A stretch of 64,000 nucleotides of DNA from Desulfatiglandales bacterium (GTDB taxonomy: Bacteria > Desulfobacterota > DSM-4660 > Desulfatiglandales > Desulfatiglandaceae), in NCBI GenBank assembly GCA_963666345.1, contig OY762721.1, positions 1,056,001 to 1,120,000 on the forward strand. Reading direction: 5' to 3'. A program made the position numbers and the translations under genes. The notes beneath the pieces were generated by a model that made no database searches, was not told the origin of the DNA, and was given only the letters and a program-made list of their open reading frames with translations. Positions 27,553 to 42,792 of this stretch are shown here, one piece after another (positions within the stretch are counted from its first letter, which is position 1; each line of letters starts with the position of its first letter).

Positions 27553-28100
27553 TCTTCCATCTCCCTCCCTGTTACTGCAACGTGTATATCACGAATAGTC
27601 CAGACAACGTGTTGCAGGAATAAAAGAACCGCCCCAAAGGGCATCATGAATTTGACGGGATAGTAGGGGGGCGCCCAGTCCGTGAGGGACCTCTCTCCGA
27701 GAACGTGAATGCCCAGAAAGGTGCCTCCACCTTCCATTGTCTGAGAACTCCAGTAGAAATTCCAGGAGGTGTAGATCAGCACCACGAGAAACAAAAAGAA
27801 AAATATACTCGTAAATAGATCCAGGTAGGCCTTTGTCCGCCTCTTCCTTGTGGAATATATCACGTCTACGCGCACGTGAGCACGGTGAAAGTGGCAATAG
27901 CCGGCCACAAACATGTATTGTACGGCGAAAAGGAGCGTCATCAGTTCATGCCCCCAGTTGGTAGGCATGCCGAAGACATAGCGCATTATCACCTCAAAAC
28001 TTATGATGATAACCGCAAACAGCATGATGCCGACATTCACCTTGCCAATGAAGATGTTGGTTTTTTCAACGGCATCAATGAATTTTTTTAGTGCATTCAT
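27549..28100 (-). CDS. dctQ: TRAP transporter small permease
   Basis: EVIMRYVF.MPTNW and HVRVD motifs. Confidence 0.9.
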   Translation of the reverse strand: MNALKKFIDAVEKTNIFIGKVNVGIMLFAVIIISFEVIMRYVFGMPTNWGHELMTLLFAVQYMFVAGYCHFHRAHVRVDVIYSTRKRRTKAYLDLFTSIFFFLFLVVLIYTSWNFYWSSQTMEGGGTFLGIHVLGERSLTDWAPPYYPVKFMMPFGAVLLFLQHVVWTIRDIHVAVTGREMEE

Positions 28101-28187
28101 ATTACTTCCTCACATGTTGCAGATTTCCCGCCGGATACTGACTCCTTGTTAAGATATCTTCTGACCGGCTTCAACTCTGCATCAATA

Positions 28188-28224
28188 GAAAAAAGGGGAA
28201 GGGTACGAGCCCATCCCCTTTTTC
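28188..28224 (-). terminator. Terminator-like hairpin after dctP
   Basis: GAAAAAAGGGGA...TCCCCTTTTTC; U-tract on the minus strand. Confidence 0.7.
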
Positions 28225-28233
28225 AGGTTTCAA

Positions 28234-29373
28234 TTAGAATTTAAGTGGTTTCCCGTCAAGGTCAACCATATCCTTGTCTGTTATGTAGTTCATCTTAACG
28301 GACTTCATGAACTCGAGCTGGGTCTTGAATGCCTTCATGGCAAGAGGAGATTTCTTGGCCCATTTTATCCAGAAGGAAGGAGCAAATCTGCGGAACTTGG
28401 CGATTTCCGCTTCCGGAAGCCTGATGATCTCAACGCCCTGCTCTTGGAATTTAACAAAAGCCTTGATGTCTTCTGCCTGTATTGAACTGTACTGATCCCA
28501 TGAATGCCACTTCACCGCCGCCCTGAAGAAATCCTGCATATAGCCGGGAAGTTTGGCCCATGAACGTTTGTTGATCTCGATCGACATTAAGTCGACAGGC
28601 TGGTGCAGGCATGGGGTTGAAGGCGGACCCATGATGATGTATTTGGCGATCTCGCCGTAACCCAGGTTGTAGTTGATGGCCGCGCCGACAAAGTCGGCAC
28701 CGTCGATAACGCCCTTTTCAAGTGCAGGGTAGACCTCGCCGCCGGGCAGAAGAACCGTTGCGACACCGGCCGCCCTGTAGATATCAGCGATGATTCCACC
28801 GGGATAACGGATTTTCTTGCCCTTGAAGTCCTCGAAGGTCCTGATAGGGACCTTTGAGTGGATCAGGTTATCATCGTGCTGGATTGGTCCGATGTAGATC
28901 ATGTTGTGTTTTCCGTATGCTTCCTGTGCAAACTCTTTTCCACCGAGCTGCGCATACCATGTCTCCCACTGATCGGGCCTGTCAGGGCCGAAGGGATAGG
29001 AACTAAGGAATGTGGCCACAGGCATCTTGCCGGGCCAGTAGCAGTCAAAGCAATGCATGCCGTCAAAGACGCCGGCCTTGACCGCATCGAACATCTCAAA
29101 GGTTCCAACGATTGCGCCGGCTGGAAAACCCTCTATAATAAGTTTTCCCTCTGTCATTTCGCCAACGAGCTTGCAGAATTCCTGGAATTTTACATATCCT
29201 ACCGTACCGGCATCCCAGGCAGTCTGAATTTTGAGTTTAATGGGTTTTGCCGAAGCCGCTTTGGCAAAGGCGGGAACGCCTAAGGTGGTTGCTGCAGCAC
29301 CTGCTACCGCTGCTGTTTTGAGGAAACTACGACGGGACACATCATTTGTCTTTCCTTGATTCTTCTCACTCAT
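28234..29373 (-). CDS. dctP: Tat-exported TRAP substrate-binding protein, lactate/2-hydroxy- or 2-oxo-acid type
   Basis: SRRSFLK Tat motif. IQTAWDAGTVGY, DRPDQWETW and IMGPP.TP..HQPVDLM closely match my recollection of the Thermus lactate-binding protein TTHA0766. Confidence 0.88.
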   Translation of the reverse strand: MSEKNQGKTNDVSRRSFLKTAAVAGAAATTLGVPAFAKAASAKPIKLKIQTAWDAGTVGYVKFQEFCKLVGEMTEGKLIIEGFPAGAIVGTFEMFDAVKAGVFDGMHCFDCYWPGKMPVATFLSSYPFGPDRPDQWETWYAQLGGKEFAQEAYGKHNMIYIGPIQHDDNLIHSKVPIRTFEDFKGKKIRYPGGIIADIYRAAGVATVLLPGGEVYPALEKGVIDGADFVGAAINYNLGYGEIAKYIIMGPPSTPCLHQPVDLMSIEINKRSWAKLPGYMQDFFRAAVKWHSWDQYSSIQAEDIKAFVKFQEQGVEIIRLPEAEIAKFRRFAPSFWIKWAKKSPLAMKAFKTQLEFMKSVKMNYITDKDMVDLDGKPLKF

Positions 29374-29646
29374 ACCTTACCTCCTTAGCACAAAGGATTT
29401 TAGATCATTAATGGACTTACCGAACACGACCGGTATAACCCTGCGAGCTGGGACCGACCGGCGTTGAAGCCCACCTTGCAAAAAAATAAGCCCAGTGCCT
29501 ATTTTTTTTACTGAACATCACATCCTCCGAAAACTCAACGACCTCCTGACACAAGTCAGGTTGCGAGCAGGTCATTAAGATTCATGAGGATATTCTAAAT
29601 TGACTCTCCGGTAAACAAATTTTATGGGCAATATCCTATTTTTTTA

Positions 29647-29657
29647 TGGTAAAACCA
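29647..29657. promoter_or_regulatory. FadR-subfamily (PdhR/LldR/GlcC-like) operator
   Basis: TGGT-AAA-ACCA palindrome upstream of dctP; same form as 47419 and 47634. Confidence 0.45.
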
Positions 29658-29866
29658 GTTCACTCACCGGAGAGGCATATACACAAAATATATACACCCA
29701 AAAAAATACATTTTATGCTAATATTACTGATTTAATATCGTTCTAGAATAGCATATCAAATCATGTCACACTTAAAAATACTCTACTTAGAACGTTTAAC
29801 AAACAGCATTTAAACTGTCAAGCCAAAAAAAATAAGCTTTCCGGGAGGAATTCCCTAGATTTTTTA

Positions 29867-29882
29867 TGCAAACGCCATGCCA
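29867..29882 (-). promoter_or_regulatory. sigma54 promoter for the lactate-type TRAP operon
   Basis: Minus strand TGGCAT-GGCGT-TTGCA; IHF-like TATCAA-AAGG-TTA at 29907-29919. Confidence 0.8.
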
Positions 29883-29976
29883 AAGCAAAAGATTGACTCC
29901 CTGCTTTAACCTTTTGATAAAACTGCAAATATTAGCACGCGCATAAATCAGGGGAGATGTTCACAATAAAATTGCA

Positions 29977-30013
29977 TGTCAAAATATTTTACAAAATGTA
30001 AAATATAATTACA
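29977..30013. promoter_or_regulatory. Upstream activator site(s)
   Basis: TGTCAA-N5-TTTACA followed by TGTAAAATATAATTACA; same motif at 42479. Confidence 0.65.
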
Positions 30014-30028
30014 TAAATGCGACTATTT

Positions 30029-31129
30029 TTACGCCACTTTTAAGCTGGTATTACCATAAGACCGCTTGACCACCAAGACAGGCTCTATCCCCATCTGCCC
30101 GCGTATCCTGTTTATGTCTTTTTCATTAGGGGGAAATGGATAATTGCGCATCTCAGGGCCGGGCCTTGAGTTCGCAAAAGGCCTGTTGCAGGCTACCTGA
30201 CCGTCGTAACCGGTACATCCGCTGGTTCTGAAAGGTTCTCCAGAATCCATAATATTGTCGAGCTTGCTCTGCAACAGCCCGAAATTCATTATTTTTCCTT
30301 CTTCATCGAATATAAAGCGGCTCACATCACTTATTTCATTGTCTATGATATAGCGGGCAAGCTGAATCCTCCTGTACTGATCCAGAGGTGGCTGGGGGTG
30401 ATCCGCCAATGTTGATCCAGGTTCCGGGAAAAAGGAAAAAAGATGGGTATACCCCCCCATTTTCCTTACCCTTTGGATCGCCGTGCACATCTCTTTCTCG
30501 GTCTCGCCCATCCCTACCATAAAATGGGACCCGGCATTACCCTTTCCAAAGATTGAAAGGCAATCTGAAAGGCACTCCCAGTATCGTTCCCATTTGTGAG
30601 GCCCCTTTACACCGCGTCCCCTGTATCTGTCAAAAAGGCTCTCTGTTGCAAGATCAATCGCCACTCCGATTTTATCGGCCCCCGCCTTTTTAAAATCGAC
30701 CAGGTCGTCACGATCAAGAACAGTAGGGGCTATCAAAAGGGACACAGGTACATCAAAGCTGCTCCTAAGTCTTTCGCATATATCACGTGTATCTTTTATG
30801 GCCCGTTTTCTCGTTACCATGGATATACAGACCCTTTTGACCTTATCCTGCCGGTCTGAAATCCTTTTTATTATCTCATCAACACCGTAGGTAGGCCACG
30901 TTACCCTTATAAAGCTTTTTTTGCCGTATTTTCCGGGCCTTGCCTTTGAAAGCCCGCAGTAGGCACATCTTGCCATGCAGCCATCCTGATAGGTCAGCAG
31001 CAGATTTATGCAGTTTAGTTTCGCGTTTCTGTAGAAAAGCCCCTGCTTGAAATCGAGCGTCATTGCCGCGGCAAGACTCATCCTCACATATTCAGGGCTT
31101 TCCTGAGGTTCTATAGCACTATCTTCCAT
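30029..31129 (-). CDS. lipS2: Radical SAM protein, LipS2-type lipoyl synthase subunit
   Basis: CMARCAYC (CX3CX2C); FRTSGC...CNRP resembles the LipS2 TXGCPXC(N/D)RP motif; lies beside lipoate ligases. Confidence 0.75.
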   Translation of the reverse strand: MEDSAIEPQESPEYVRMSLAAAMTLDFKQGLFYRNAKLNCINLLLTYQDGCMARCAYCGLSKARPGKYGKKSFIRVTWPTYGVDEIIKRISDRQDKVKRVCISMVTRKRAIKDTRDICERLRSSFDVPVSLLIAPTVLDRDDLVDFKKAGADKIGVAIDLATESLFDRYRGRGVKGPHKWERYWECLSDCLSIFGKGNAGSHFMVGMGETEKEMCTAIQRVRKMGGYTHLFSFFPEPGSTLADHPQPPLDQYRRIQLARYIIDNEISDVSRFIFDEEGKIMNFGLLQSKLDNIMDSGEPFRTSGCTGYDGQVACNRPFANSRPGPEMRNYPFPPNEKDINRIRGQMGIEPVLVVKRSYGNTSLKVA

Positions 31130-31141
31130 TTGTTTTTCTCC

Positions 31142-32095
31142 TTATGCAGTCTCCCATTGTTCGCCTGACAGGTCCTTTGATACCGAGCAACAGGTTCTTT
31201 GATATTTTATTTTCATTCCCAGTCTTTCGGCCGCAGATATCGCCTCATCAGAGGGAAGGGCCATTCGGTTTATTCCCGCCCGGATAGCAAGTTCCTCAAG
31301 CCTCGTGTTTCCACGCTGTCGCGCGCACCCAAGGCTCATCCTCGTCTCCGGCAGGCTCAGCCGCGCCTCTGCGATTATATCCGCCACCTCTTCGGACACC
31401 GGCAGACGGAACCTTCCCGCCCCCGTTCCCGGCAACTTCATGTAAGATACGATTACAAGCTGTTCCAGGTCAAAATCGGTCAGCCTCGCAATCGCCCTTT
31501 TCTCCCCCTTTATCCTGCCGAAAAAAAGGCCGCACACGATATGAGGCACCAGGGGGATGGATGCCTTTTGAAGCGCCTCCATGGATGCATATATTCGTGA
31601 TACCCCGAAAGGCACATGATATATCTGTTTATACGTCTCATCGTCCCCTATTACGTCTATGAGTGCCTGATCCACGCCTGCCCTCTTGAGCGCAAGTGCC
31701 TTACCTTCATCAACCATCCCGCTGTGTATCGACACAAAAAGGTCGGTCTTATTTTTTATCTCTTCAATTACAGCTAGAAATTCGCTCCATGGAAGACACC
31801 CCTCACTGTCGCAACCCCCGCTCAGCAATACGCCATGGTAGCCCCTGTCCGCCAGCTTTAGGCACTTCTCCTTTAAAGTTGCCGCATCTTCTGCATGAAT
31901 CATTGTCTTTAAAAGGCTTCCCCTGCAATGTTCGCAATCAAGGCTGCAGTTGTTCCCCGTAAGTGATATGGCGGGGTAACGACCCGAAATGCCATTGTAT
32001 CTGAACATGCCCGGCAGAAAAAAGGTTATCTCCCGCCCGAAGTGTTTCCAGGAAAGCTCTCCTGCCCTGTCAATCTTTTCAATTATCTCTTTCAT
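31142..32095 (-). CDS. lipS1: Radical SAM protein, LipS1-type lipoyl synthase subunit
   Basis: CSLDCEHC; GCAR and terminal CC motifs characteristic of LipS1. Confidence 0.78.
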   Translation of the reverse strand: MKEIIEKIDRAGELSWKHFGREITFFLPGMFRYNGISGRYPAISLTGNNCSLDCEHCRGSLLKTMIHAEDAATLKEKCLKLADRGYHGVLLSGGCDSEGCLPWSEFLAVIEEIKNKTDLFVSIHSGMVDEGKALALKRAGVDQALIDVIGDDETYKQIYHVPFGVSRIYASMEALQKASIPLVPHIVCGLFFGRIKGEKRAIARLTDFDLEQLVIVSYMKLPGTGAGRFRLPVSEEVADIIAEARLSLPETRMSLGCARQRGNTRLEELAIRAGINRMALPSDEAISAAERLGMKIKYQRTCCSVSKDLSGEQWETA

Positions 32096-33146
32096 AGTAC
32101 CGTTTATATGAAACCCAGCATTTCCTTATAATGCCGTCGAAATTCTCCCAGTTTTCCTCCATCAGATTTCTTCTGGAACATGCCCTTTCGAGGGTTTCCC
32201 CGAAAAGATCGGACCATTCGTCTTCATACCCGCCAAGGGCCTCAATATCCTTTGAAATTACCGCCTCGGCTGCCCATTTCCCCGCCATTCGACCACCCAT
32301 GACCGCCTGGGACACCCCCGCGCCTGTAATCGGATGCGTGTGCCCGGCCGCATCGCCGGCAAGGATTACGTTGCCCTTGCGGATCTTTCTGGGGCTTTCA
32401 GCAGGTATCCAGCCTGCCATGGTCCTGAAAGATCCCTCCCTGACCTTACCCTCACGGGAAAGTCTCTGCAGAAATTTCTTCAAAACCTCCTGGATAGAAG
32501 GACTCCGTTGATCCCTCTTTTTCATTCCGATTCCTATATTTGCCGTATCACCCTTCGGGAAAACCCATGCATATCCCGCGAAAAAGTCCTTTTCAATGTA
32601 GATCTCGGTAAAATCCATCTGCCTGCTCAGGGGAACCGAGTATTGTATACCTGGTATCAGATTCCTGTTTTCAGACCCGATCCATCTGCCCACGGTGGAA
32701 TGGGGTCCGTCGGCACCGATCACCACCTTGGCATTTACTGATATGTTATCTCCCGCCTTGGTCCTGAGTAAAATTCCTTCCCTGCCCCTCGAAAGGGCGG
32801 AAGTGGAAAGAAAAATCCTTGCACCCGCCTTTTCCGCCGCCTCCGCGATGCATTGATCCAGGATGTCCCTGTTGACCATAAAGCCGGGAGCGATGGTCTC
32901 CTTGTCTTCCTTTCCCGATATAAATGTCTTCATGCCCCTTACGGGCTGGACCACGAAACCACGGCCAAGGCCGATTTCCCCCAGCAACATGCCCGGGATA
33001 TATTCGGCACACCTGACCGGGATTCCCACGGTTTTCCGGCGTTCCGCAACCAGGACCTTAAGCCCCTTTTCAGCGGCGGCAATTGCAGCCGATGACCCGG
33101 CGGGCCCGGCACCCACGATCAGGATATCACATTCTTCTTGCTTCAT
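32079..33146 (-). CDS. Geranylgeranyl reductase-family FAD oxidoreductase (LipT-like)
   Basis: VGAGPAG, VIGADG, GYAWVFPK and GDAAG..HPITGAG motifs; adjacent to lipS1. Confidence 0.8.
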   Translation of the reverse strand: MKQEECDILIVGAGPAGSSAAIAAAEKGLKVLVAERRKTVGIPVRCAEYIPGMLLGEIGLGRGFVVQPVRGMKTFISGKEDKETIAPGFMVNRDILDQCIAEAAEKAGARIFLSTSALSRGREGILLRTKAGDNISVNAKVVIGADGPHSTVGRWIGSENRNLIPGIQYSVPLSRQMDFTEIYIEKDFFAGYAWVFPKGDTANIGIGMKKRDQRSPSIQEVLKKFLQRLSREGKVREGSFRTMAGWIPAESPRKIRKGNVILAGDAAGHTHPITGAGVSQAVMGGRMAGKWAAEAVISKDIEALGGYEDEWSDLFGETLERACSRRNLMEENWENFDGIIRKCWVSYKRYYERDN

Positions 33147-33166
33147 TTGAAAAACCGTTCCGGATA

Positions 33167-34738
33167 TCAGCGACTCCTCCTGACATCTGTGTTGAGGACC
33201 GTGTTCAACAGATCAAGGTTGACTTCGGTCTGGCTCGAGAAGGTCCCGGCGTAGGCGTCTTTCGCCTGGTCAAGTTCGTAACAGGTGGTGCTGTCGATAT
33301 CCAGGAGTATTCCGGGCAGCCCTGCCTTTTCAAAGTCGTCTACATGTTTGGTAAAAAAGGGCTGACAGCAGCAGCCTATATAGGAGGTCACCCCTCTCGC
33401 CTTCATCTTGAGCAATTCCTCCCACAGGTCTTCAAAGCTGACTATGCAGACGGTCTTCATCTTCTTTTTCCTGCCCATCTCCCATGCGGTCCCTATGGTG
33501 CACTTACCACAGGCTCGGCACCCCTTTTTATATCGCAATTCGCAGGTCGTAAGTTTGGAACAGTAGGGAAGGAGAAGGAGCGACGGTTCATCCTTGAGGA
33601 TTTCCTCGAATGTCCCGTTCGTAACCGATATCTTGTTGCAGTGCTCTATGGGGATATCATATTCTGATATGGCAATTTTCTGAAGTATCTGATCCACAGG
33701 CTTTAGAAAATCCTCAAAACCCATTCCTGGTATGGTGATTAATTTATTTTCAAAATACTCCCTGATGATACCATGGATCAGACCTCTGTCGAGACGCAGC
33801 CCTCGAAGGGCCGATTCCATATCAAAGAGGGCCCTGCTTGGAAAGGACAGAAAATCACCTGTAATGAAAATGTCCTTGATCCTCTTCTGGGCCTTATTTA
33901 TCGCCATGGTGAACCTCACCAGGCCCGAGTCGGCCTTATAGGCGGACTGAACCACCTCTTTTTTCTGATACCTGGGATTGACATGGTAGATCCATTCACT
34001 TGATCTGTAATAGTCAAGCTTTTCCCTGAAAAGATCCTTTTCCGATTCCGCAAGCCCCCCCGGTTCGAGTGTGATACCAAGCTCCTTTTCAAAACCCCCG
34101 GCAACGGCATCCTTTATCTCAGACAAAGAGGGGGTATGACCCAGCTCCCAGTTGAGGCACGTGACCCTTTCCTTGACGGAATCTATCTCTTTTGCCTTCA
34201 GCTTTTCCACCGGTATTCGAAGGCTCCTGAGCATCGTATCCACGTCAAAATCAACAAGCATGGTCCCCTGAAAAAGAAAGGCGTCGTCGGAGTCGGTGCC
34301 GCCCGTACCTGATATCTTCCTTCCGTTAACCTCTATGTCGTTTCTGGGCCTGAAATCGGACTCCACCCCGAGGATCCTGAGCGCCTCTACAACGGGGGCG
34401 CAGAGCCGTTTGAACAGTCTCAGATTCGGAAGTTTCACGTCAAAGAATGACTTGGAGCTGATGACCTCCCATCCAAGTTGATTCTCATCAAAAAACAGGG
34501 CACCGCCCCCTGTATTCCGCCTGTTTATCTCAATGTTATTGGCCATGCAGTAATCTACACGGACCTCCTCCTCCACCGACTGATGATAACCCACAAGTAC
34601 GCATCGCGGCGAAAACTGCAGGAAATGAATAGTATCAGGGGTCTCCCCCTTTCCCTTTAATTCCACCAGGGTTTCGTCAAGGGCCATATTTTCAGCCGCC
34701 GTCATTGGCGGTGTATCAAGGAGTCTCCATACCGTCAT
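33167..34738 (-). CDS. Lipoate-protein ligase family protein with an extra Cys-rich (DUF116-like) C-terminal domain
   Basis: NMALDE, RRNTGGGA, RKISGTG and ITGDF motifs; C-terminal LPYC-x5-C-x6-CxxCxxC...GCCC...C. Confidence 0.8.
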   Translation of the reverse strand: MTVWRLLDTPPMTAAENMALDETLVELKGKGETPDTIHFLQFSPRCVLVGYHQSVEEEVRVDYCMANNIEINRRNTGGGALFFDENQLGWEVISSKSFFDVKLPNLRLFKRLCAPVVEALRILGVESDFRPRNDIEVNGRKISGTGGTDSDDAFLFQGTMLVDFDVDTMLRSLRIPVEKLKAKEIDSVKERVTCLNWELGHTPSLSEIKDAVAGGFEKELGITLEPGGLAESEKDLFREKLDYYRSSEWIYHVNPRYQKKEVVQSAYKADSGLVRFTMAINKAQKRIKDIFITGDFLSFPSRALFDMESALRGLRLDRGLIHGIIREYFENKLITIPGMGFEDFLKPVDQILQKIAISEYDIPIEHCNKISVTNGTFEEILKDEPSLLLLPYCSKLTTCELRYKKGCRACGKCTIGTAWEMGRKKKMKTVCIVSFEDLWEELLKMKARGVTSYIGCCCQPFFTKHVDDFEKAGLPGILLDIDSTTCYELDQAKDAYAGTFSSQTEVNLDLLNTVLNTDVRRSR

Positions 34739-35802
34739 TTTTTCTCTTTAACCCCGAGTACCTCCAGCCAGTCTCTGATCTCGATTCCGGGGGTCTCCAC
34801 CTTTCTTTCTCCGTAAAATCTCTCAAGTGCTTCTTGCATATCACTTAAGCGCAATCCTTCAATATAAGACTCAAGCTGGCTTATACCACTCTCCGGGAAA
34901 CAAAAAAAATCGCCTGAGATATGAATCCCCGAAAGCCTTCCATCCGACAGCTGCATTTCGGCCCTTATAAGTCCGCCCATGGCCTTATGCATCCTCCGGA
35001 TGACATTGGTGCCCGCCCTTATTTTTATGTCCCTGCCATCGGGATACCTTCTTCCCCTCTGAAAAAGCCATTCATCGGCAAGCATACGGGATCTCAGTTT
35101 ATCCATAGTCTCTCTTAGCTCATCATCAATTCCGCACGGCTCCATCCGCCCCAAAAGCCTTTCAAACGATTGCCTCATCAGCCGGTTGAGCCTGGGTTCG
35201 GGCCATTCCGATGCACACTCTCCGAGTTCCCGCCTGATAGTGGACAGATTTTCCTTAAGTGTCTTTTGCACCTTGTCTCGGAATTTTTCATCAGGCACCC
35301 TCAACACCCGGCACATCGTCTCATAGTCGAAATCGACTATAAGATTTCCCACAAAGACTATACATTCGCCTATCTCGGAGGCGCCCGTGCCAGATATTTT
35401 CCTGGTACCCGCGATTATGTCGTTTATCGGCCTGTATTCGGCAGGTATTCCTATAGTTCGGTACACCTCTATTGCCGGGGCGAGAAATTTCTTGTAAAAG
35501 GCCTCTTTGTTGGCCGGAACAAGGGGACTTTTTCTTTTCAGTATCAGCTGGAAAAAAAGCTGATTTCCGTCAAGGTAAACCGCGCCTCCCCCGAGATCAC
35601 GCCTGAAAACAGGGATGCCCCTTTCTCTGCAGAAATCAAGATCCACCTCCTGCTCCAGATCCTGGTGAAATCCTATGCAGACATAATGAGAAGAAGGGGA
35701 AACAAGACAAAGCGCCTCTCTTTCCAGTCCGGCAAGGGCGTGGTAAATCAGTTGAGATTCATCCCAGGGAACCTTTCCGAGATTGTAGAGTTTCATGCCC
35801 AT
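34735..35802 (-). CDS. lplA: Lipoate-protein ligase (catalytic plus accessory domain)
   Basis: RRDLGGGAVYLD, RKISGTGA and ISGDFF motifs. Confidence 0.85.
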   Translation of the reverse strand: MGMKLYNLGKVPWDESQLIYHALAGLEREALCLVSPSSHYVCIGFHQDLEQEVDLDFCRERGIPVFRRDLGGGAVYLDGNQLFFQLILKRKSPLVPANKEAFYKKFLAPAIEVYRTIGIPAEYRPINDIIAGTRKISGTGASEIGECIVFVGNLIVDFDYETMCRVLRVPDEKFRDKVQKTLKENLSTIRRELGECASEWPEPRLNRLMRQSFERLLGRMEPCGIDDELRETMDKLRSRMLADEWLFQRGRRYPDGRDIKIRAGTNVIRRMHKAMGGLIRAEMQLSDGRLSGIHISGDFFCFPESGISQLESYIEGLRLSDMQEALERFYGERKVETPGIEIRDWLEVLGVKEKK

Positions 35803-36126
35803 TTTCGTCCGACCTGACCTTCAGAAACAGATTTTCTATTATTAAACCAGAATTCGTCAAAAATACCGTTTGCCGGAAACCAGGCGCTTAAATCACATCT
35901 GTCGGTAATGTCTATAAAAAAACAAGGTACGGACAACACTGTTACCGGAACCCGGATGCTGTCCATACCTTGTTCTCTGTAATGATAATCAAATTTCTCC
36001 CGCCTCCGCCCAAATGGCGGAAGCACACCGCTTTGTTGACAAATGCGGAGGGGATGTATTCCGTCGAAACCACAGGATACTTCCAGGGCCGAATAATAAG
36101 ACCCGATTTTGCCGATAAACTTATAT

Positions 36127-37311
36127 CTAGTCTTTAAGGGCCTTTCTTACCAGCTGAGTTATATCCAAGACCTGAAGGGGAATCTTGTTCCTCCTTACAT
36201 ATGTCGCCATGGTCCTTACGCACTGCTGGCAAGAGGTTATAACCGCATCCGCCCCGGTGCTCAGCACCTCTTCTATCTTTCTTTTTCCCACTTCCGAGGA
36301 AAGACCCGCATCAATCATCTCGAGGTTACCTCCCCCTCCGCAACACTGGGAATTCTCCCTGTTATGCGGCAGTTCCACGAACTTGACACCGGGGATGGAG
36401 CCGATGACCTCTCTTGGTTCATCAAAAACCCTTGCCCCCCTTCCGAGATCACAGGGATCGTGATAGGTCACCGTCATGGAAAGCTCCTTCAGAGGAACCC
36501 TTCCTTCCTTCATCAATTTAAGAAGGTACTGGGTGGCATGAAACAGTTTGAACTCGGAAGGGTAGTACTCCCTCCACATCTGGTAGCAGGAGGGACAGGC
36601 AAAGAGTATTTCCCTTGCTCCTCTTTCCCTTACCGCCTCTACATTGTGGTCTACAAACTGCTTGAACATGTCCATGAGGCCCGCTCCCAGAAGCGGGAAG
36701 CCGCAGCACCATTCATCCTCACCCATAAGGGTCCATTCGACTTCACTGGCATCCAGTATCTCTGCAAGGGCTATCGGAATTTTCTGTACAAGCGGAAAAT
36801 ACGCGGAAGTACAACCGGTAAAATAGACGAGTTCCGCCTTGTCCCTGATATAACTGTCATCAGGTGGATCATCCATATCTTCGACCCAGTCGGCCCGTTC
36901 CTCGTTATCCTCATTAAATACGTTATAGCTCTTTTCCAGATTATCCCTGATCATGTCTATCTTATTGGGATAATTGTCGCTGTGAACAAGGTCCTGACGG
37001 AGTGAAAGCCACAGCTCTTTAAGAGGAATTCCCACCGGACAGATTTCCTGACAGTTTCCGCAAAGAGTGCACTTGAAAACAGTGTCGCTGAAATGCTTGG
37101 CCTGCTCCGGAGTCTCAGGCCTTGCCCCCAAAAGCCTTCCAAAGACGGTCCGTTGTTTCAGAAGCTGCCTTAGGCCGCCGATACGGAAGACAGCGGAAAG
37201 CTCACCATCTTCAGATGCGGATACCACAGGGCACACATCCGCGCACATCTGGCAGTTGGTGCAGGCCCCCATAGAAAGGAGCTGAGTTACACTGTAGTCC
37301 TTGATGCCCAT
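36127..37311 (-). CDS. Fe-S oxidoreductase, two [4Fe-4S] plus two CCG domains (HdrD/GlcF-like)
   Basis: CTNCQMCADVCP and CTLCGNCQEICP; GC..CCG..CPSC and HDPC..CCG..CQQC. Confidence 0.88.
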   Translation of the reverse strand: MGIKDYSVTQLLSMGACTNCQMCADVCPVVSASEDGELSAVFRIGGLRQLLKQRTVFGRLLGARPETPEQAKHFSDTVFKCTLCGNCQEICPVGIPLKELWLSLRQDLVHSDNYPNKIDMIRDNLEKSYNVFNEDNEERADWVEDMDDPPDDSYIRDKAELVYFTGCTSAYFPLVQKIPIALAEILDASEVEWTLMGEDEWCCGFPLLGAGLMDMFKQFVDHNVEAVRERGAREILFACPSCYQMWREYYPSEFKLFHATQYLLKLMKEGRVPLKELSMTVTYHDPCDLGRGARVFDEPREVIGSIPGVKFVELPHNRENSQCCGGGGNLEMIDAGLSSEVGKRKIEEVLSTGADAVITSCQQCVRTMATYVRRNKIPLQVLDITQLVRKALKD

Positions 37312-37312
37312 A

Positions 37313-37735
37313 TTATTCCTGCGCGTATTTCTCTAGATCCGCCGCAATCCACTTTTCGATAGCTTCAGCACCCTTGATGAGGTCTCCAAGTTCGGCCTTG
37401 TCGTCAGGTTTTACCTTGTACATCCAGCCTTCACCGTAACAGTCCTCGTTGATAAGACCGGGATTGATTTCAAGATCCTCATTTACTTCAACGAGTTCTC
37501 CGTTCACAGGGGCAAATGCCTTTCCCAGCCACTTGCCGGACTCCAGTTTCGCGAACTTCTTTCCCTTTTTGAGTCTCTTACCCTCGTCAGGCAGCTGTAC
37601 ATAAACTATATCTCCGGCCATTCTCTGGGCGAAATCATCCATTCCGAGTACGAGCAGATCCCCCTCTTCCCTGACCCAGAGATGATTTTCCTCATAGTAC
37701 AGATCTTCCGGCATATTGTATCCTTGTACTTCCAT
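37313..37735 (-). CDS. gcvH: Glycine cleavage H-like lipoyl carrier protein (LbpA-like)
   Basis: HLWVR, GMDDFAQ, lipoyl-lysine motif LESGKW, and PGLINEDCYGEGW. Confidence 0.88.
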   Translation of the reverse strand: MEVQGYNMPEDLYYEENHLWVREEGDLLVLGMDDFAQRMAGDIVYVQLPDEGKRLKKGKKFAKLESGKWLGKAFAPVNGELVEVNEDLEINPGLINEDCYGEGWMYKVKPDDKAELGDLIKGAEAIEKWIAADLEKYAQE

Positions 37736-37834
37736 TGTTGATCCTCCTCTTACATTTTTTTGATTAGGCAGTCATGATTCAAGAGCCATTATGCTGCCGT
37801 CATTATCCCGCCTCTCGGATTACCCGATCAAAGA

Positions 37835-38935
37835 TCAGTCCTCCTCACGCAGCAGGTTTATAAACTCTGTCGTTGTATATATCTTGAGCTTCTGTTTTCT
37901 CAGTTTAGCATTCGCAAGGTTATGCACGCAGGAGTTACATTCGGTAAGAAGGACCTCCGCCCCTGCCTCCTCGGCCTCCTCAAGCCTTCGCCTTGCCATT
38001 GCGATAGAGTTTGCCGCATAGGCTCCTCTTACACCACCTCCCGCCCCGCAGCAAAGGGCCTTTTCATGGTGATGTCTCATCTCCACGAAATTGGGGGCTA
38101 TCTTTCGTATCGTATCACGCGGCTCTTCATAGATACCGCAATGCCTTCCAAGATCGCAAGGATCATGGTAGGTCACTTTCTTATCGGTCTTGAATCCGAT
38201 ATCGATATCCTTCAGGAACTGGGAAAGATGAATGCATTTCACTCCCTTTTCCTTAAGTTCCGCATATTGTTTCTTGTTGTTGAATGTACGGGAACAATAC
38301 GGACAACCGGTTATGACGGTCTTTGCCCCGGTTGCCATTATAAGATCTATATTCGTCCTTACATGCTTCTCATTTATGGGATGCCCCACATCCTCGAGCA
38401 CACCGCTGCAGCAGACCTCATCTATAAGAGTGTAATCCACCTCAAGATAATCAAGGAGATCGAGTGTTGCCGTTGTCCTCTCGTCCTCTCTGTAGGAGCC
38501 TACGCATCCTATGAAAAAAACATATTCCGCTTTTCCGTTTCGCTCTCTCTCAAAATCTTCAGGTTCGTCCTCGGCATATATATTATCGTGCTCCTTAAGC
38601 ACCTTGTTCATTCCTGTAAATGCAGGATGACATGACCCTATATGCACCATGTCTTTTCTGGCCTGCTTTATAATCTCAGGCACTTCCACCCCTGATGGAC
38701 AGTTTTCGGCACAGGCCCCGCATGTTGTGCACTGAAAAAGGGTTTCAATCAGCTCGTCGTTCAGATCAAGAGTGCCGTCCATTACCTCCTTGAGAAGCAG
38801 CATCTTTCCCCTTGCGTTGTAGGCGGGCCTGAGAGTAGCCCCGAATACCGGACATACCGACTGGCAGAAGCCGCATCTTGAACATTGGAGTACCTGATCG
38901 CGAAATTTTCTTTCAAAATCATATTTGGCTTCCAT
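37835..38935 (-). CDS. Fe-S oxidoreductase, two [4Fe-4S] plus two CCG domains (GlcF/HdrD-like)
   Basis: CSRCGFCQSVCP and CTTCGACAENCP; CCS..CPYC and CCG..CNSC. Start trimmed to MEAKYDF. Confidence 0.88.
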   Translation of the reverse strand: MEAKYDFERKFRDQVLQCSRCGFCQSVCPVFGATLRPAYNARGKMLLLKEVMDGTLDLNDELIETLFQCTTCGACAENCPSGVEVPEIIKQARKDMVHIGSCHPAFTGMNKVLKEHDNIYAEDEPEDFERERNGKAEYVFFIGCVGSYREDERTTATLDLLDYLEVDYTLIDEVCCSGVLEDVGHPINEKHVRTNIDLIMATGAKTVITGCPYCSRTFNNKKQYAELKEKGVKCIHLSQFLKDIDIGFKTDKKVTYHDPCDLGRHCGIYEEPRDTIRKIAPNFVEMRHHHEKALCCGAGGGVRGAYAANSIAMARRRLEEAEEAGAEVLLTECNSCVHNLANAKLRKQKLKIYTTTEFINLLREED

Positions 38936-38936
38936 G

Positions 38937-40319
38937 TTATCCCTCATCAAGCGCCATTTTCCCTGGATTAAGAATATTTTTGGGGTCAACCATCCTCTTG
39001 ATACTTCGCATTACATCCATGGCCACATCGTCATGTTCCCAGCACATGTAGCGTGCCTTCTGCATTCCTATGCCATGCTCTCCGGTCAGCGTGCCGCCCA
39101 GCTCAATCGCCATTCTGAAAAGATCATCGCTGGCAGCCCTTTTGGCCTTTACCTGATCCTGGTCATATCCGTCGTATACAAACTGTGGGTGAAGGTTTCC
39201 ATCCCCTGCGTGACCATATGTTGCTATCATTATGTTATGTTTTTTGGAGATCTCCTGTATGCCCTTCAATGCTTCGGCCAGTCTGCTCATAGGAACCGTG
39301 ACATCCTCAAGCACCTGGTGGGTCTTGAGCCTGGCAAGGACCGCGTAAGCCGACTTTCTGGCCGCCCACAGACCGGCTGCCTCATCCTTGGACTGGGCCT
39401 GTTTAATCTCTTTGGCGTTGTTGGCCTTGAAGACCTCCAGGACCTTTGACATCTGATAATCGGTTTCTTCCTGGGTATAACCGTCGGTCTCCGAAAGCAG
39501 AATGGCATCAACCTCCGGAAGGTTCAGGTCCGTGTTCTGGTTTATGGCCATTATGGCCTCTTTTCCAAGGATCTCAAGAACCGCGGGCAGGATGCCGCTG
39601 TGCATAACCTGGCTTACCGCCCTTCCGGCATCCTCCACATCATCGAAGGTACCGAGCGCGGTAGTGGAAGCGGTCGTCATCGGATTTATCTTAAGCGTAA
39701 TTTCCGTGACAACGCCAAGGGTACCTTCAGAGCCTACAAAGAGTTTAGTGAGGTCGTAGCCGGACACACTCTTGATGCACTGAGATCCTGTCTTCATGAT
39801 TCGTCCGTCAGGAAGGACAACCTGAAGGCCGAGCACATAATCCCTTGTTGTGCCGTATTTGGCCCCCCTTACCCCTCCCGCGTTGGTGGCGACATTTCCG
39901 CCCAGGGTACAAACCTGACTGCTTGCGGGATCAGGGGGGAAAAAGAACCCGTAGGGTGCTATCGCCCTTGCCAGATCGTCATATACCACACCAGGTTCAA
40001 CCACGACCAGACGATCTTCTATGCTTATCTTCTTGATCCTGTTCATGTGATTGAGATCAAGAACGATTCCTCCCTTAAGCGGTATGGCCATACCGGTAAG
40101 GCCAGTCGCCCCCCCCCTCGGTATTACGGGCATCTCTTCCTTGTTGGCCAGCTTCAGGATCTCCGAGACATGCTCGACCGTCTGGGGCCACACACCACAG
40201 GAAGGCCTGTGAGTGTATTCGCTTGCATCGTAAGAATAGGAGACCATATCTATCAGGCTGTCATTGTAGTTCTTCTCCCCTACAATCTCAATCAAGGCCT
40301 TTTTTAGTCTGTCTTCCAA
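38937..40319 (-). CDS. glcD: FAD-linked oxidoreductase, GlcD/D-lactate dehydrogenase family
   Basis: PRGGATG, PPDPAS..CTLGGNVATNAGG, GSEGTLG, GHAGDGNLHP, GEHGIG and LNPGK motifs. Confidence 0.88.
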   Translation of the reverse strand: MEDRLKKALIEIVGEKNYNDSLIDMVSYSYDASEYTHRPSCGVWPQTVEHVSEILKLANKEEMPVIPRGGATGLTGMAIPLKGGIVLDLNHMNRIKKISIEDRLVVVEPGVVYDDLARAIAPYGFFFPPDPASSQVCTLGGNVATNAGGVRGAKYGTTRDYVLGLQVVLPDGRIMKTGSQCIKSVSGYDLTKLFVGSEGTLGVVTEITLKINPMTTASTTALGTFDDVEDAGRAVSQVMHSGILPAVLEILGKEAIMAINQNTDLNLPEVDAILLSETDGYTQEETDYQMSKVLEVFKANNAKEIKQAQSKDEAAGLWAARKSAYAVLARLKTHQVLEDVTVPMSRLAEALKGIQEISKKHNIMIATYGHAGDGNLHPQFVYDGYDQDQVKAKRAASDDLFRMAIELGGTLTGEHGIGMQKARYMCWEHDDVAMDVMRSIKRMVDPKNILNPGKMALDEG

Positions 40320-40376
40320 GGTTTACCTCCTTAAACGTCCCCTGCAGAATGTAAACGGCAGAGGGTCAGCCCTTTA

Positions 40377-42200
40377 TCAGTCGTGATGATCCTCATTTGC
40401 CGCCGCACGCATAGAGAGCATGACAGGCCCCAAAATTATGTGAAACAGGCGACTGAAGGGCAGGTATGCAACAAATATCCCGGTAAGTATCGCATGCAGA
40501 TACCATATGAAGCCGTATATACCTGTCAACCATGTTCCGGAAAATACAAGGCTGATAATATAGCCTAAAAATGCATAGCCTGAGTTGTCCGGCCGGCCTG
40601 TCATGGCGATTCTTATTCCTTCCAGTATGAAGCCTACGACAACAATCCCTCCTATGAGACACAGTGCCAGTCTGTCCTGCCTGGGAAGGCCCCGAGCAGG
40701 ATTTACCTGTCTGAAAAGGCCGCGCACAAAGGCGGAGATTATCCCGGCAATTATCATCAGCCCGGTCAAATCATATAGGAATGCGGTAAGCGGATGGTTC
40801 TTGTATACCATATCCCAGATAAATGATGATTCCGAAGGATGCCATAGAGATCCCAGAAGGGCGAAAAGCCCCCAGAAAAACCTGAACACAAAGGGCAGGA
40901 AAATCAGGCTGTGTATCAACCAGCGTGTCGGAGACTGAAGATAGAGCCTCCTCTGGAGCAGCACATCAAAGAAGAGAGTCTTAATGATCTCCCCGATCTT
41001 TTTTGAAAAGATCGCACCAAACGCGCTTCCGAGAAGAACTCCCAGTTTGGAAAACGGCCCCAACCCCTCTTTGCCTTGAATGGAACCGGAAAGGAGCACT
41101 GAGAAAAACGCCGCCACACCGAATAAAAATACCAGAAGAGAAAGTATCGTAACAGTATCACCCGCGGAAAAGGTGGCGATATGGCAGGGCATGCACAAGA
41201 CCCCTTTTGCCGGCAGCACCATGGCTGCCGCACCCAGGGTATTGCCCGAACTGTGGCATCTTTTGCAGGAGTCATCGTCTTCAAATTCAATCATCTCATG
41301 AATAGAAAGTTTCGAACCGGTTGATGCAGGCCTTTCCCACACTATACGATTTGTTTTTTCATCCTTGACAGGAGTCACCCCTTTGAGATGGCATGCCTCG
41401 CAGGATACCCCGACATGCGCGTCATGGGCCATCTTTTCATCATGAGGATTATGGCAGCGGGTGCAGTCTCCCGGTTTCTGTTCATGGTGATAGTATTGAG
41501 CGGCATTGGGGTGACAGGTCGTGCAGGCCATTGAGGCGTGAGGCGTTTTTTCGTAATCCTTGAGATCTATAAGAGGAAGCGCCTTTGAGGTTATCTTCTG
41601 CGCCTCCTTTTCTCCCTCGCCGTGGCAGTTGGTACAGAGAGAGACGACCTGTTTTTTGCCCTCCGCAGTAACATGGTCGACCTCTCGGTGGCATGTCATG
41701 CAGGCCTCATCGTCTTCAGAAAGCACCGGGAGTTTCGATCGCTCTTCGTGGCAGGCCCCGCACTGGAGGTGACGCGGCCTGGACGGGTCGAATTCGCCCG
41801 CTGCGTTTTCATCCCGACTCTGAAGGTAGTGGGGCTTGTGACAACGTATGCAGAGGCCGTACTTTTCCTTATCCTTTACCTGTCTTGAGCCATGGGTACC
41901 CGATTCAAGGTCATCCATTATATAGTCATGACAATCCAGACATTGTTGGGCTTCGAAAAAATCGACCTTGCCCTTTTTTACATTCGAGGGATCAGGGTGA
42001 ACGGATTCATCCGAGATGGCATAATGACATTCCTGGCAACCTATCTGGCCATGTGCGGAACTGTGGAATCTGGCTTCATCAAGCACCCAGGAGGCTTCGG
42101 CACCCATAGTCGTAATGAAGACCAACCCGGCAACAATCGCTCCTATTGCACCTCTTTTCATAGCTGACTTTAAAATCCTCATAGTTAATCGAAAAAGCAT
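40377..42200 (-). CDS. Multiheme cytochrome c (11 CxxCH) fused to a NarI/HdrE-like membrane cytochrome b domain
   Basis: Eleven CxxCH motifs after a signal peptide, then TM helices with RWLIHSLIF, GFILEG.R, WYLH and YLPFSRLFH. True start may be 42161. Confidence 0.85.
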   Translation of the reverse strand: MLFRLTMRILKSAMKRGAIGAIVAGLVFITTMGAEASWVLDEARFHSSAHGQIGCQECHYAISDESVHPDPSNVKKGKVDFFEAQQCLDCHDYIMDDLESGTHGSRQVKDKEKYGLCIRCHKPHYLQSRDENAAGEFDPSRPRHLQCGACHEERSKLPVLSEDDEACMTCHREVDHVTAEGKKQVVSLCTNCHGEGEKEAQKITSKALPLIDLKDYEKTPHASMACTTCHPNAAQYYHHEQKPGDCTRCHNPHDEKMAHDAHVGVSCEACHLKGVTPVKDEKTNRIVWERPASTGSKLSIHEMIEFEDDDSCKRCHSSGNTLGAAAMVLPAKGVLCMPCHIATFSAGDTVTILSLLVFLFGVAAFFSVLLSGSIQGKEGLGPFSKLGVLLGSAFGAIFSKKIGEIIKTLFFDVLLQRRLYLQSPTRWLIHSLIFLPFVFRFFWGLFALLGSLWHPSESSFIWDMVYKNHPLTAFLYDLTGLMIIAGIISAFVRGLFRQVNPARGLPRQDRLALCLIGGIVVVGFILEGIRIAMTGRPDNSGYAFLGYIISLVFSGTWLTGIYGFIWYLHAILTGIFVAYLPFSRLFHIILGPVMLSMRAAANEDHHD

Positions 42201-42368
42201 ATCTTAATCACGATGTTACGGTGGAAAATCATTACAGGAATAGTCACTTCATCTAAAGAGATCAGTCAATAGCAGATAGCAAATGAGGTGTCAAGAAGCA
42301 AAAGAGCATGCTTAATCCTCACTTTTCAAAATGAAAGCGGGCAATAAGAGCCCATCCCAAGTTTTGTA

Positions 42369-42384
42369 AGCAAGGCGTGTGCCA
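42369..42384 (-). promoter_or_regulatory. sigma54 promoter for the cytochrome-GlcD-lipoate operon
   Basis: Minus strand TGGCAC-ACGCC-TTGCT. Confidence 0.85.
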
Positions 42385-42478
42385 TTATATATGAAAGGTC
42401 CATGACCGGGTAACTGTCTGATTAATTAAGACTGAAATGACATGTCTGATTGGGAAAGGCCGGGTTGGTCGAAAAAAC

Positions 42479-42505
42479 TGTCAATTTTTTTTACACTATG
42501 TAAAA
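42479..42505. promoter_or_regulatory. Upstream activator site
   Basis: TGTCAA-N5-TTTACA-N2-ATGTAAAA, 95 bp from the -24 element exactly as at 29977. Confidence 0.65.
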
Positions 42506-42664
42506 AGGCAGGGCATTCTATCTGAACCGCCGAGCATGAGGATCATGGAACATTTAACCTCTTCCGAGACAGGTTGGCTTATTTCATAATAGAATATCTG
42601 GTTATATGCGTCAGTTTGGGAAAACGGCTCTACGTTAATGATTCGGGTAAAACAGCTGCCTTGC

Positions 42665-42767
42665 AGAAATCGAAAATTTCCTGATGGAGAATTCAGCCGT
42701 CTGTATTCAGCCAAATGACCTGTTTTTTTTATTTCTTTTGCCGACAGCCGATAGCTGAGTGCGAATC
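42665..42767. repeat. Dispersed intergenic repeat of about 100 bp, copy 1 (partner 58165-58274)
   Basis: AGAAATCGAA...TTCAGCC...ATTCAGC..AATGACCTGTTT...TCTTTTGC..ACAGCCGATAGCYGAG...GCGAATC is shared by both copies. Confidence 0.8.
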
Positions 42768-42792
42768 CGGCCCTGTTGACCGGGATTTACTT

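Follow-up and report, generated by a model that had tools for sequence, protein, structure and literature searches.

We analysed a 64,000-nucleotide stretch of the genome of a Desulfatiglandales bacterium (assembly GCA_963666345.1, contig OY762721.1, positions 1,056,001 to 1,120,000 of the forward strand; hereafter the window, whose own numbering is used unless a genome position is indicated) that carries ten co-oriented genes, A to J, lying head to tail on the minus strand from position 42200 to position 30029. As judged from gene order in related loci, the conserved core of this run consists of three genes: A, encoding a cytochrome c fused to a NarI/EtfD-like membrane domain; D, encoding a lipoyl carrier of the GcvH family; and E, encoding an HdrD-like iron-sulfur (Fe-S) protein with two CCG domains (CCG2). 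We incline, by a modest preference, towards the view that this core is a modular membrane Hdr-like complex that would use the lipoyl group of D as its dithiol/disulfide substrate and would receive electrons from soluble dehydrogenases by way of this shuttle. An earlier sequence-only reading of the same DNA had proposed a lipoate-shuttled respiratory system for the oxidation of 2-hydroxyacids. The ten-gene run, with the content and order given there, is borne out at every position by the open reading frame (ORF) list and by Pfam and NCBIfam matches. Hydroxyacid oxidation as the primary function is not: the GlcD-type flavoprotein B and its Fe-S partner C (CCG1) are found in only 31 of the 55 loci with A upstream of E, and they would form an exchangeable input module, present in about half of the loci, whose place is taken elsewhere by genes for acetoin/2-oxoacid dehydrogenases.

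At least 578 relatives of E were found in contigs of a one-genome-per-species collection. The locus counts given here refer to the best 80 of them, which are 54–76% identical to E and whose neighbouring genes were located by tblastn with the window proteins. These 80 loci are mostly labelled Desulfobacterota; a few carry Acidobacteriota, Leptospirales, Bacteroidales or Anaerolineales labels, which may be binning errors. A gene for D (50% identity or more) was located in 71 of the 80 loci; in seven of the nine without it, less than 350 nt of sequence is available upstream of E, so that D is found in 71 of 73 informative loci. The linkage of D to A and E holds across many families. In 55 loci A lies within 9 kb upstream of E, and the orders seen among these are A-B-C-D-E (26 loci), A-D-E (21), B-D-A-C-E (3), B-C-A-D-E (2), A-E (2) and A-C-D-E (1). 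Membership of the gene set therefore survives reshuffling of its order. Within the phylum, orthologs of E with at least 56% identity were present in 20 of 301 evenly sampled genomes, and a more distant group, of 43–45% identity, in all nine genomes of one family.

The loci that lack GlcD point to what may take the place of B and C. We looked at 13 of the 21 A-D-E loci, with 54 of their 162 unlabelled ORFs submitted to domain searches. In seven of the 13 (L037, L056, L068, L071, L073, L076 and L080), genes for the E1alpha/beta, E2 acyltransferase and/or dihydrolipoamide dehydrogenase (E3) components of 2-oxoacid dehydrogenases lie upstream of A, and an E3 gene is found in five of the loci examined. 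Several of these seven loci, and also L059, contain genes for an AcoX-like protein of the NAD-kinase fold and a short-chain dehydrogenase/reductase (SDR), which are typical of acetoin operons. Locus L065 has an E3 gene together with a LipB/LipA-type fusion, and fusions of this type stand directly before A in L071, L076 and L080. The fusion in L076 was typed as LipB-LipA, so that in this operon E2 and D would each have their own lipoylation genes side by side.

The carrier gene D (37313..37735) encodes 140 residues that match GCV_H (1e-39), with the predicted lipoyl-lysine K68 in an ESGKW motif. Across 44 sequences, residues E65, S66, G67, K68, W69, G71 and C99 do not vary. In the alignment, GcvH proteins linked to gcvP/T have ESVKA at the motif and Pro at position 99, in contrast to the ESGKW and Cys99 of D. 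Exactly one Cys is present in 75 of the 83 D-type sequences, and in D itself this is C99. The host genome, assembled as one contig of 4.16 Mb at 96.7% completeness, has four full GCV_H genes. The true GcvH is encoded at 4.06 Mb in a gcvT-gcvH-gcvPA-gcvPB operon that continues with a LipB-type gene and lipA and has an E3-like gene beside it. We built a quick maximum-likelihood tree of the GcvH family (unrooted, from a short alignment) with 102 rows drawn from the 80 related loci and 21 genomes. As the sequence-only reading had anticipated, the carrier separates from the glycine-cleavage proteins: the eight gcvP/T-adjacent genes fall on one side of a branch with Shimodaira–Hasegawa-like approximate likelihood ratio test (SH-aLRT) support of 100, and the other groups are neighbours of a lone ligase gene (7 rows, 97) and long fused forms (96). 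All 83 rows that adjoin A, C or E stand apart from these three groups. The D-type label needs two changes on the tree, which we tentatively attribute to two long-branch extra copies in locus L050. By phylogeny and neighbourhood, then, D is a paralog distinct from the true GcvH of its own genome.

Two further GCV_H genes of the genome lie outside the window. One belongs to a set at 1375585-1378242 of the genome contig (G000:C1) that encodes a GcvH paralog with QSRKW at the motif, an LplA-type ligase and a LipS2-like radical S-adenosylmethionine (SAM) protein, and that adjoins hisD; relatives of this carrier form a clade of their own (7 rows, SH-aLRT 97). The other, at 2612533-2613507, encodes a 324-residue protein with a C-terminal GCV_H match and Gly at the position of the lipoyl-lysine, next to a sigma54 response regulator and a PAS/GAF histidine kinase. 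In relatives, GCV_H matches recur within open frames of 300–460 residues.

It had been claimed that the window contains no genes for the P or T protein of glycine cleavage, a 2-oxoacid dehydrogenase, dihydrolipoamide dehydrogenase or HdrA, and this is correct for the ORFs scanned. Among the 49 window ORFs scanned with Pfam (with NCBIfam in addition for the ten genes), none has a gcvP/T, E1, E2, E3, electron-transferring flavoprotein (ETF), HdrA-type or sulfurtransferase domain. These 49 are all but one of the 50 non-overlapping ORFs with 90 residues or more; the exception is a 96-residue ORF at 5319-5609 on the plus strand. At the genome level, no E2 acyltransferase (PF00198) was found in the 96.7%-complete single contig, and D therefore has no 2-oxoacid complex to serve here. 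All lipoyl proteins of this genome appear, by their sequences, to be of the H-protein type. The suggestion that the lipoyl arm has a purely redox role thus stands as the simplest reading, while the order of the electron carriers, the direction and the substrate, which had been named along with it, stay at the level of inference.

The partner gene E (36127..37311) encodes two ferredoxin motifs and two CCG domains, and its product is the predicted cytoplasmic partner of the membrane domain of A. Eighteen Cys residues, eight in the ferredoxin motifs and five in each CCG domain, are invariant in 76 of 76 sequences, which agrees with the comparison to HdrB/HdrD in the earlier reading. E is not a member of the DsrK, TmcB or HmcF models (97.3 vs a cut-off of 400, 88.2 vs 735 and 69.3 vs 750, respectively). 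Its closest solved relative is the soluble part of EtfD (2.8e-43); HdrB chains reach only about 1e-4. The first CCG motif reads WCCG in E and TCTG in EtfD in the alignment, and E keeps the Hdr-type five-cysteine pattern in both CCG domains, which EtfD does not. Co-folding of the carrier with a CCG protein, run for E with D, gave a median score of 0.54 over three runs against 0.00 for the best of three controls, and was graded as weak support. The runs share at least 85% of contacts, and the predicted local distance difference test (pLDDT) value of the partner is at least 88. The pass mark is attained by 116 of the 157 solved complexes in the benchmark and by 2 of its 215 mismatched pairs; passing scores of 0.60 or less come from only 18 of the 157 solved complexes and from both of the passing mismatched pairs. 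These benchmark counts hold only roughly for the custom 44-row alignments used here.

The cytochrome gene A (40377..42200) encodes 607 residues with a signal-like N-terminus, 11 CXXCH motifs, the last of which ends at residue 340, and about five hydrophobic helices in the C-terminal part of the translation, and was assigned from these motifs, from Pfam and from a structural model as a periplasmic cytochrome c with 11 haems, joined in one polypeptide to a membrane domain of five helices that resembles NarI and EtfD. The Pfam matches are to multihaem families, and the NarI match is weak (19.5 bits vs a cut-off of 22.9). Among 47 homologs, 30 have 11 CXXCH motifs and ten have 10. An AlphaFold2 model of residues 300–607, made from 38 sequences, has a pLDDT of 85.2. 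In structural comparison with VIA-align it matches residues 2–261 of EtfD (9ojn) with Z 15.2 and a root-mean-square deviation of 3.9 over 237 aligned residues, and NarI with Z 9.3–9.7, whereas unrelated rows reach at most 6.2. A Foldseek search of the membrane domain against the PDB gave no match at E ≤ 0.001.

Four residues of the membrane domain, H430, R440, H569 and H587, do not vary among the 40 sequences compared. The spacing of H430 and H587 (157 residues) is near that of the EtfD haem ligands His78 and His241 (163 residues). H569 and H587 are 18 residues apart, a gap that resembles that of the helix-5 ligand pair of NarI, and R440, ten residues after H430, occupies the position of the second helix-2 haem ligand of NarI. 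The eleventh CXXCH (C336-H340) ends one residue ahead of helix 1. Because Arg occupies the usual helix-2 ligand position, the distal haem b may be replaced by this last c-haem, for which H569 would then supply the sixth ligand; alternatively, a second haem b may be bound in some other way.

The input genes B and C lie between A and D. B (38937..40319) encodes a GlcD-type flavin adenine dinucleotide (FAD)-dependent D-2-hydroxyacid dehydrogenase of 460 residues with FAD_binding_4 and FAD-oxidase_C domains. It scores below the equivalog level of the glcD models (474.7 vs a cut-off of 567.9 for TIGR00387 and 338.6 vs 897 for NF008408), so that its substrate is not fixed by a model match. Its closest solved relatives, all aligned end to end, are glycolate oxidase 9qgz (1.4e-93), LctD 7qh2_C (3.8e-83) and mitochondrial D-lactate dehydrogenase (3.3e-82). 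The H-x-GDGN-x-H and GEHG residues of GlcD and D-lactate dehydrogenases serve in metal and substrate binding; in B the corresponding HAGDGNLHP and GEHGIG are conserved in the alignments to 9qgz and 7qh2_C, and B looks catalytically intact. C (37835..38989) encodes a soluble HdrD-like Fe-S protein with two CX2CX2CX3C motifs and two CCG domains. Its start is uncertain, as the TTG at 38989 overlaps B and in-frame ATG codons are found at 38947 and 38935. The eight ferredoxin Cys and the five plus five CCG-domain Cys are kept in 37–38 of 38 homologs. C and E are 31% identical over their full length; C scores below E on the DsrK, TmcB and HmcF models and reaches 71.2 on the GlcF model (cut-off 333). 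In related loci C always adjoins B.

Several related loci (L016, L050, L064, L088 and L089) have extra GlcD-like and CCG genes after or before the core, 41–60% identical to B and E, so that a single carrier can have two or more hydroxyacid dehydrogenase modules clustered with it. Elsewhere in the host genome, 22 kb upstream of the window on the minus strand (G000:C1:1032346-1041427), lies a carrier-free cluster with genes for malate-thiokinase-like ATP-grasp and CoA-ligase proteins, an HpcH/malyl-CoA-lyase-like protein, GlcD-like and GlcE-like proteins, a CCG Fe-S protein and an iron-containing alcohol dehydrogenase. This cluster is probably a glycolate/glyoxylate route.

The five genes after E would provide D with its own lipoylation pathway, in line with the claim of the sequence-only reading; they are of the sLpl/LipT/LipS1/LipS2 kind and stand beside D, while a LipB-LipA pair is found in the glycine-cleavage operon. 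F (34735..35802) encodes an LplA-type lipoate-protein ligase of 355 residues with LplA-B_cat and Lip_prot_lig_C domains (127 bits on TIGR00545, cut-off 280). G (33167..34738) encodes an LplA-type ligase of 523 residues in which the same two domains are fused to a C-terminal Cys-rich DUF116. The two ligases are 34% identical and both contain RKISGTG. In G, residues C393, C399, C407, C410, C413, C456–458 and C486 are invariant in 25 of 25 sequences, a pattern that suggests a metal or Fe-S site fused to the lipoate ligase. H (32079..33146) encodes a LipT-like flavoprotein of the geranylgeranyl-reductase family (TIGR02032, 210.7 bits vs 158.8). I (31142..32095) encodes a LipS1-like radical SAM protein (NF053742, 3.5e-63, 213.7 bits vs a cut-off of 230), and J (30029..31129) a LipS2-like one (NF053743, 1.7e-68, 231.2 bits vs a cut-off of 270). 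On the LplAB model the scores are 100–121 against a cut-off of 550. The set F–J appears to match sLpl/LipT/LipS1/LipS2 in kind, with the LipS1, LipS2 and LplAB scores below the curated cut-offs. LipT is described as an FAD-binding oxidoreductase that may give electrons to LipS1/S2 (PMC10332631). Among the 47 related loci with at least 6.5 kb after E, the genes G-H-I-J follow in 21, F in 12 (in one of them followed by B), F-I in two, further GlcD/CCG genes in four and none of the query genes in eight. Both ligase types, F and G with its DUF116, follow E in the window; none of the 80 related loci has both, each having either F or G-H-I-J.

The module is akin to Hdr-like complexes, with a protein-bound dithiol carrier. 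HdrDE of Methanosarcina, DsrMK(JOP), TmcABCD and HmcABCDEF resemble the predicted complex of A and E in that they pair a NarI-like membrane cytochrome b module with a cytoplasmic HdrD-like subunit. In each of them this subunit has two ferredoxin motifs and CCG domains and acts on a thiol/disulfide couple (CoM-S-S-CoB or DsrC). E and C match the DsrK, TmcB and HmcF models, far below the family cut-offs. Tmc and Hmc have, like A, periplasmic multihaem cytochromes c. In contrast to all four systems, A carries its c-haems and its membrane domain in one polypeptide, the neighbour of E is a lipoyl carrier and not DsrC, and Arg stands at one of the helix-2 ligand positions. Among solved structures, mycobacterial EtfD (9ojn) comes nearest to both E and the membrane domain of A; it has five transmembrane helices, an Fe-S chain, a single haem b close to the cytoplasmic side with ligands His78/His241 and, beside this haem, a menaquinone site (EMBO J 2026, PMC13083937). 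It has been proposed to pass electrons from ETF to menaquinone, and its first CCG domain holds a shielded, non-catalytic linear [3Fe-4S] cluster with Thr539 in place of the Hdr Cys (PMC13083937). Unlike EtfD, which is one polypeptide without c-haems, A and E are separate genes, E keeps Cys where EtfD has Thr, a lipoyl carrier is adjacent, and no gene for ETF, the partner of EtfD, is present among the window ORFs scanned.

The sHdr-LbpA system of sulfur oxidisers is like the D system in combining a GcvH-like lipoyl protein with Hdr-like CCG proteins and a private set of ligase, LipT, LipS1 and LipS2 that coexists with canonical lipoylation (Cao 2018, PMC6067878; Tanabe 2023, PMC10332631). It differs in that the window ORFs scanned include no HdrA and no sulfurtransferase genes, that the CCG proteins here are of the fused HdrD type rather than split into HdrB and HdrC, and that the partners here are a membrane cytochrome and carbon dehydrogenases. 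D also lacks the two conserved terminal Cys of LbpA, as far as LbpA can be compared by its description (10.64898/2026.10.01.755906). The GlcDEF glycolate oxidase and the GlcD/CCG D-lactate dehydrogenases of sulfate reducers share the GlcD fold and motifs with B and the GlcF/HdrD-like architecture with C. Unlike GlcDEF, the operon has no GlcE, B and C fall below the equivalog cut-offs, and the pair sits between A and D in 26 of 55 loci. In Pelobacter carbinolicus, the Act membrane cytochrome complex has been speculated to exchange electrons with a GcvH-like 'lipoyl carrier protein LarG', reoxidised by dihydrolipoamide dehydrogenase (Aklujkar 2012, PMC3543383). In contrast to A-D-E, the Act complex is of the alternative-complex-III type and has no CCG protein, and the proposal is a speculation about one genome. 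A search of the full-text literature, with subscription journals and supplements outside its scope, returned no description of a module of cytochrome/NarI, GcvH-like and HdrD-like proteins, and the passages checked in papers on sHdr/LbpA, lipoylation and the genomes of sulfate reducers (PMC10332631, 10.64898/2026.10.01.755906, PMC6067878, PMC5109826, PMC10553843 and 10.1101/2025.07.15.664484) do not mention it.

The mechanism that we favour builds on the gene content, the conserved linkage, the paralogy of D, the Cys and His patterns and the fold, all of which are observed. From these we infer the lipoylation of D, the action of C and E on it, and the direction, substrate and terminal acceptor of the electron flow. 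In this mechanism E would dock on the cytoplasmic face of the NarI/EtfD-like domain of A, and the two would make up a split complex of the HdrDE/DsrMK/EtfD kind with a periplasmic extension of 11 c-type haems. The cytoplasmic substrate of this complex would be the dithiolane/dithiol of the lipoyl group on K68 of D. Electrons would pass between lipoyl-D, the CCG clusters, the [4Fe-4S] clusters and the proximal haem b (H430/H587), and from haem b on to menaquinone and/or the c-haems. On the input side, B would oxidise a D-2-hydroxyacid of the D-lactate or glycolate type, probably imported by a tripartite ATP-independent periplasmic (TRAP) transporter, and its electrons would reach lipoyl-D through the HdrD-like subunit C. 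In other genomes, acetoin/2-oxoacid dehydrogenases would fill this input place beside A-D-E. F, G, H, I and J would lipoylate D, apart from the LipB-LipA pair of the glycine-cleavage operon.

Several observations weigh against this mechanism. Each of its functional steps is read from neighbourhood and motifs, and the predicted complex of E with D is only weak. Where NarI has a haem ligand in helix 2, A has the invariant R440, which leaves the cofactor content of its membrane domain uncertain. D passes the GcvH models (116.6 vs 115.85 on TIGR00527 and 142.2 vs 117 on NF002270), so that public annotation will name it GcvH, and all 14 of its solved relatives in the PDB are true H proteins; by its sequence, D could still serve glycine cleavage. 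In two of the 73 informative loci A runs directly into E with no D between them, and of the 47 loci whose sequence extends 6.5 kb or more beyond E, 12 lack a lipoylation gene in that part. E-like proteins appear to work without a dithiol carrier, both in EtfD and in the GlcD-GlcE-CCG cluster of the same genome. The second-best solved relative of B, LctD, is a subunit of an NAD+/ferredoxin-linked lactate dehydrogenase, an enzyme that needs reduced ferredoxin to push lactate electrons to NAD+. Finally, with standard potentials of about -190 mV for lactate/pyruvate, -90 mV for glycolate/glyoxylate and -290 mV for lipoamide, the transfer from hydroxyacid to lipoyl would be about 100–200 mV uphill. 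Uphill oxidations can run if pulled by product removal, as with malate dehydrogenase, and the proposed transfer may run only in this way; otherwise the flow may be reversed.

Reversed flow is the alternative that survives best, even though we judge it rather unlikely. It would take electrons from the periplasmic cytochrome pool or menaquinol to lipoyl-D and make dihydrolipoyl-D a cytoplasmic reductant, with lipoyl-dependent peroxidases, reduction of 2-oxoacids by C-B or reversed glycine cleavage as possible uses. HdrDE and DsrMKJOP reduce their disulfides in this direction, and the thermodynamic objection to the hydroxyacid-to-lipoyl transfer would fall away. This direction has an energetic cost of its own, however, since reduction of lipoyl (about -290 mV) from menaquinol (about -74 mV) needs energy input. 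The 49 window ORFs scanned include no peroxidase, Ohr or OsmC gene, and the neighbours of the core are catabolic dehydrogenases and a TRAP importer, which suggest that electrons enter from substrates.

We also regard as unlikely that B and C are an ordinary GlcD/GlcF-like dehydrogenase that passes electrons to quinone or to E and A directly, with D having no electron role; D could then be a surplus H protein, act in regulation or donate lipoyl groups to some other process. The CCG Fe-S protein of the carrier-free cluster described above, which is 45% identical to E and has no GcvH gene nearby, lends this view some weight, as do the passage of electrons in EtfD through Fe-S, CCG and haem b sites without a disulfide substrate and the GcvH model scores of D. 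It leaves aside that D stands beside E in 68 of the 73 informative loci, with or without B and C, that the residues around its lipoyl-lysine are invariant in a clade-specific manner, and that dedicated lipoylation genes adjoin in 35 of 47 loci. Moreover, C and E keep the catalytic-type Cys pattern that EtfD has lost.

Sulfur handling in the manner of sHdr-LbpA, in which the lipoyl arm would bind sulfane sulfur and the CCG proteins would oxidise or reduce it, is very improbable to our mind. The sole published combination of a GcvH-like lipoyl protein, an Hdr-like complex and sLpl/LipS1/LipS2/LipT is indeed sHdr-LbpA (PMC6067878; PMC10332631), and the host is of the sulfate-reducer type. In the window, however, no HdrA, TusA, DsrE or rhodanese domain was found among the 49 ORFs scanned, D has the single conserved C99 rather than the N- and C-terminal Cys pair of LbpA (10.64898/2026.10.01.755906), and the neighbours of the core are dehydrogenases for carbon substrates. 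That D is a second H protein of glycine cleavage in a coincidental neighbourhood, as the two GcvH models and the 14 solved H proteins might suggest, is scarcely credible in view of the complete gcvT-H-PA-PB operon with its LipB-type gene and lipA elsewhere in the genome, the separation of D-type rows from gcvP/T-adjacent genes in the tree and the linkage to A and E across many families.

The locus was further said to lie behind a sigma54 promoter. A perfect match to the sigma54 consensus TGGCAC-N5-TTGCW, TGGCACACGCCTTGCT (42369..42384, minus strand), is located 169 nt upstream of the ATG of A and is the sole zero-mismatch site in the window, so that the -24/-12 element itself is present as claimed. 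It is not conserved: a site with at most one mismatch within 450 nt upstream of A was found in only one of 37 related loci, against 0.5% of random 450-nt segments. At up to two mismatches the window holds 19 sites vs 29.7 expected, which is no enrichment, and a scan of 26000-43000 for consensus promoters and terminators gave nothing above shuffled sequence. A second, putative sigma54-like site with one mismatch, TGGCATGGCGTTTGCA (29867..29882, minus strand), stands ahead of TRAP transporter genes, about 490 nt upstream of the dctP ATG. These genes encode DctP (with a twin-arginine translocation signal), DctQ and DctM by their Pfam matches (26239..29373, minus strand) and follow J behind TGGCATGGCGTTTGCA on the same strand as the operon. 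Ten of the 80 related loci (L017, L024, L030, L031, L038, L044, L049, L066, L068 and L074) also contain TRAP genes, irrespective of strand, and DctPQM likely serves substrate uptake for the system. ORFs of fewer than 90 residues were scanned in the intergenic regions 35803-36126 and 42201-42792, which contain no convincing small gene.

Contigs from the metatranscriptome libraries of one marine-sediment study (four libraries) are 95–99% alike to the window. Stretches of the five genes A to E are covered at listed record depths of roughly 3–12, and stretches of DctPQM at roughly 7–90; I, J and F are touched by small pieces only, and in all four runs the depth is zero in the bins at about 31456-34375, which hold H, most of G and part of I. 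Such contigs do not prove transcription, and their uncovered part proves nothing; the uneven depth fits RNA better than contaminating DNA and is consistent with expression.

Upstream of the operon on the same strand (42793-47349) are genes for an SDR, a PaaK-like CoA ligase, a small B12-binding protein and a large subunit of the methylmalonyl-CoA-mutase family, which together would be an acyl-CoA mutase pathway; a divergent GntR/FCD regulator lies at 47709-48425. At the other end of the window (137-18516), Pfam matches reveal three TRAP sets, among which genes for corrinoid (B12-binding) proteins and URO-D/MtaA-like methyltransferases are interspersed. Two of these B12-binding proteins, both large (2149-4116 and 6816-8753), have identical Pfam scores, and beside it lie a sigma54 response regulator (18966-20420) and a PAS histidine kinase (20618-23251).

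To our knowledge, most bacterial HdrD-like (CCG) proteins have no assigned physiological substrate, and no electron acceptor has been assigned to the lactate dehydrogenases of the GlcD/CCG kind in sulfate reducers. With a conserved lipoyl carrier between CCG proteins, there is now a concrete and testable candidate. The module is a common one, given the number of relatives of E in species-representative genomes. If our preferred reading is true, it would also explain part of the occurrences of LipS1/LipS2 outside sulfur oxidisers; sHdr is present in only 42% of the bacteria that contain LipS1/S2 (PMC10332631). Lipoate would then have a third role, that of shuttling respiratory electrons to a cytochrome in the membrane, in addition to acyl/aminomethyl transfer and its part in the sulfur oxidation of sHdr. 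In a broader form that we put forward only tentatively, and hold to be somewhat short of an even prospect, lipoylated GcvH paralogs would be general soluble two-electron carriers of anaerobic respiration that link interchangeable dehydrogenases to an Hdr-like membrane complex with 11 c-haems, and would represent the carbon-metabolism counterpart of DsrC-DsrMK.

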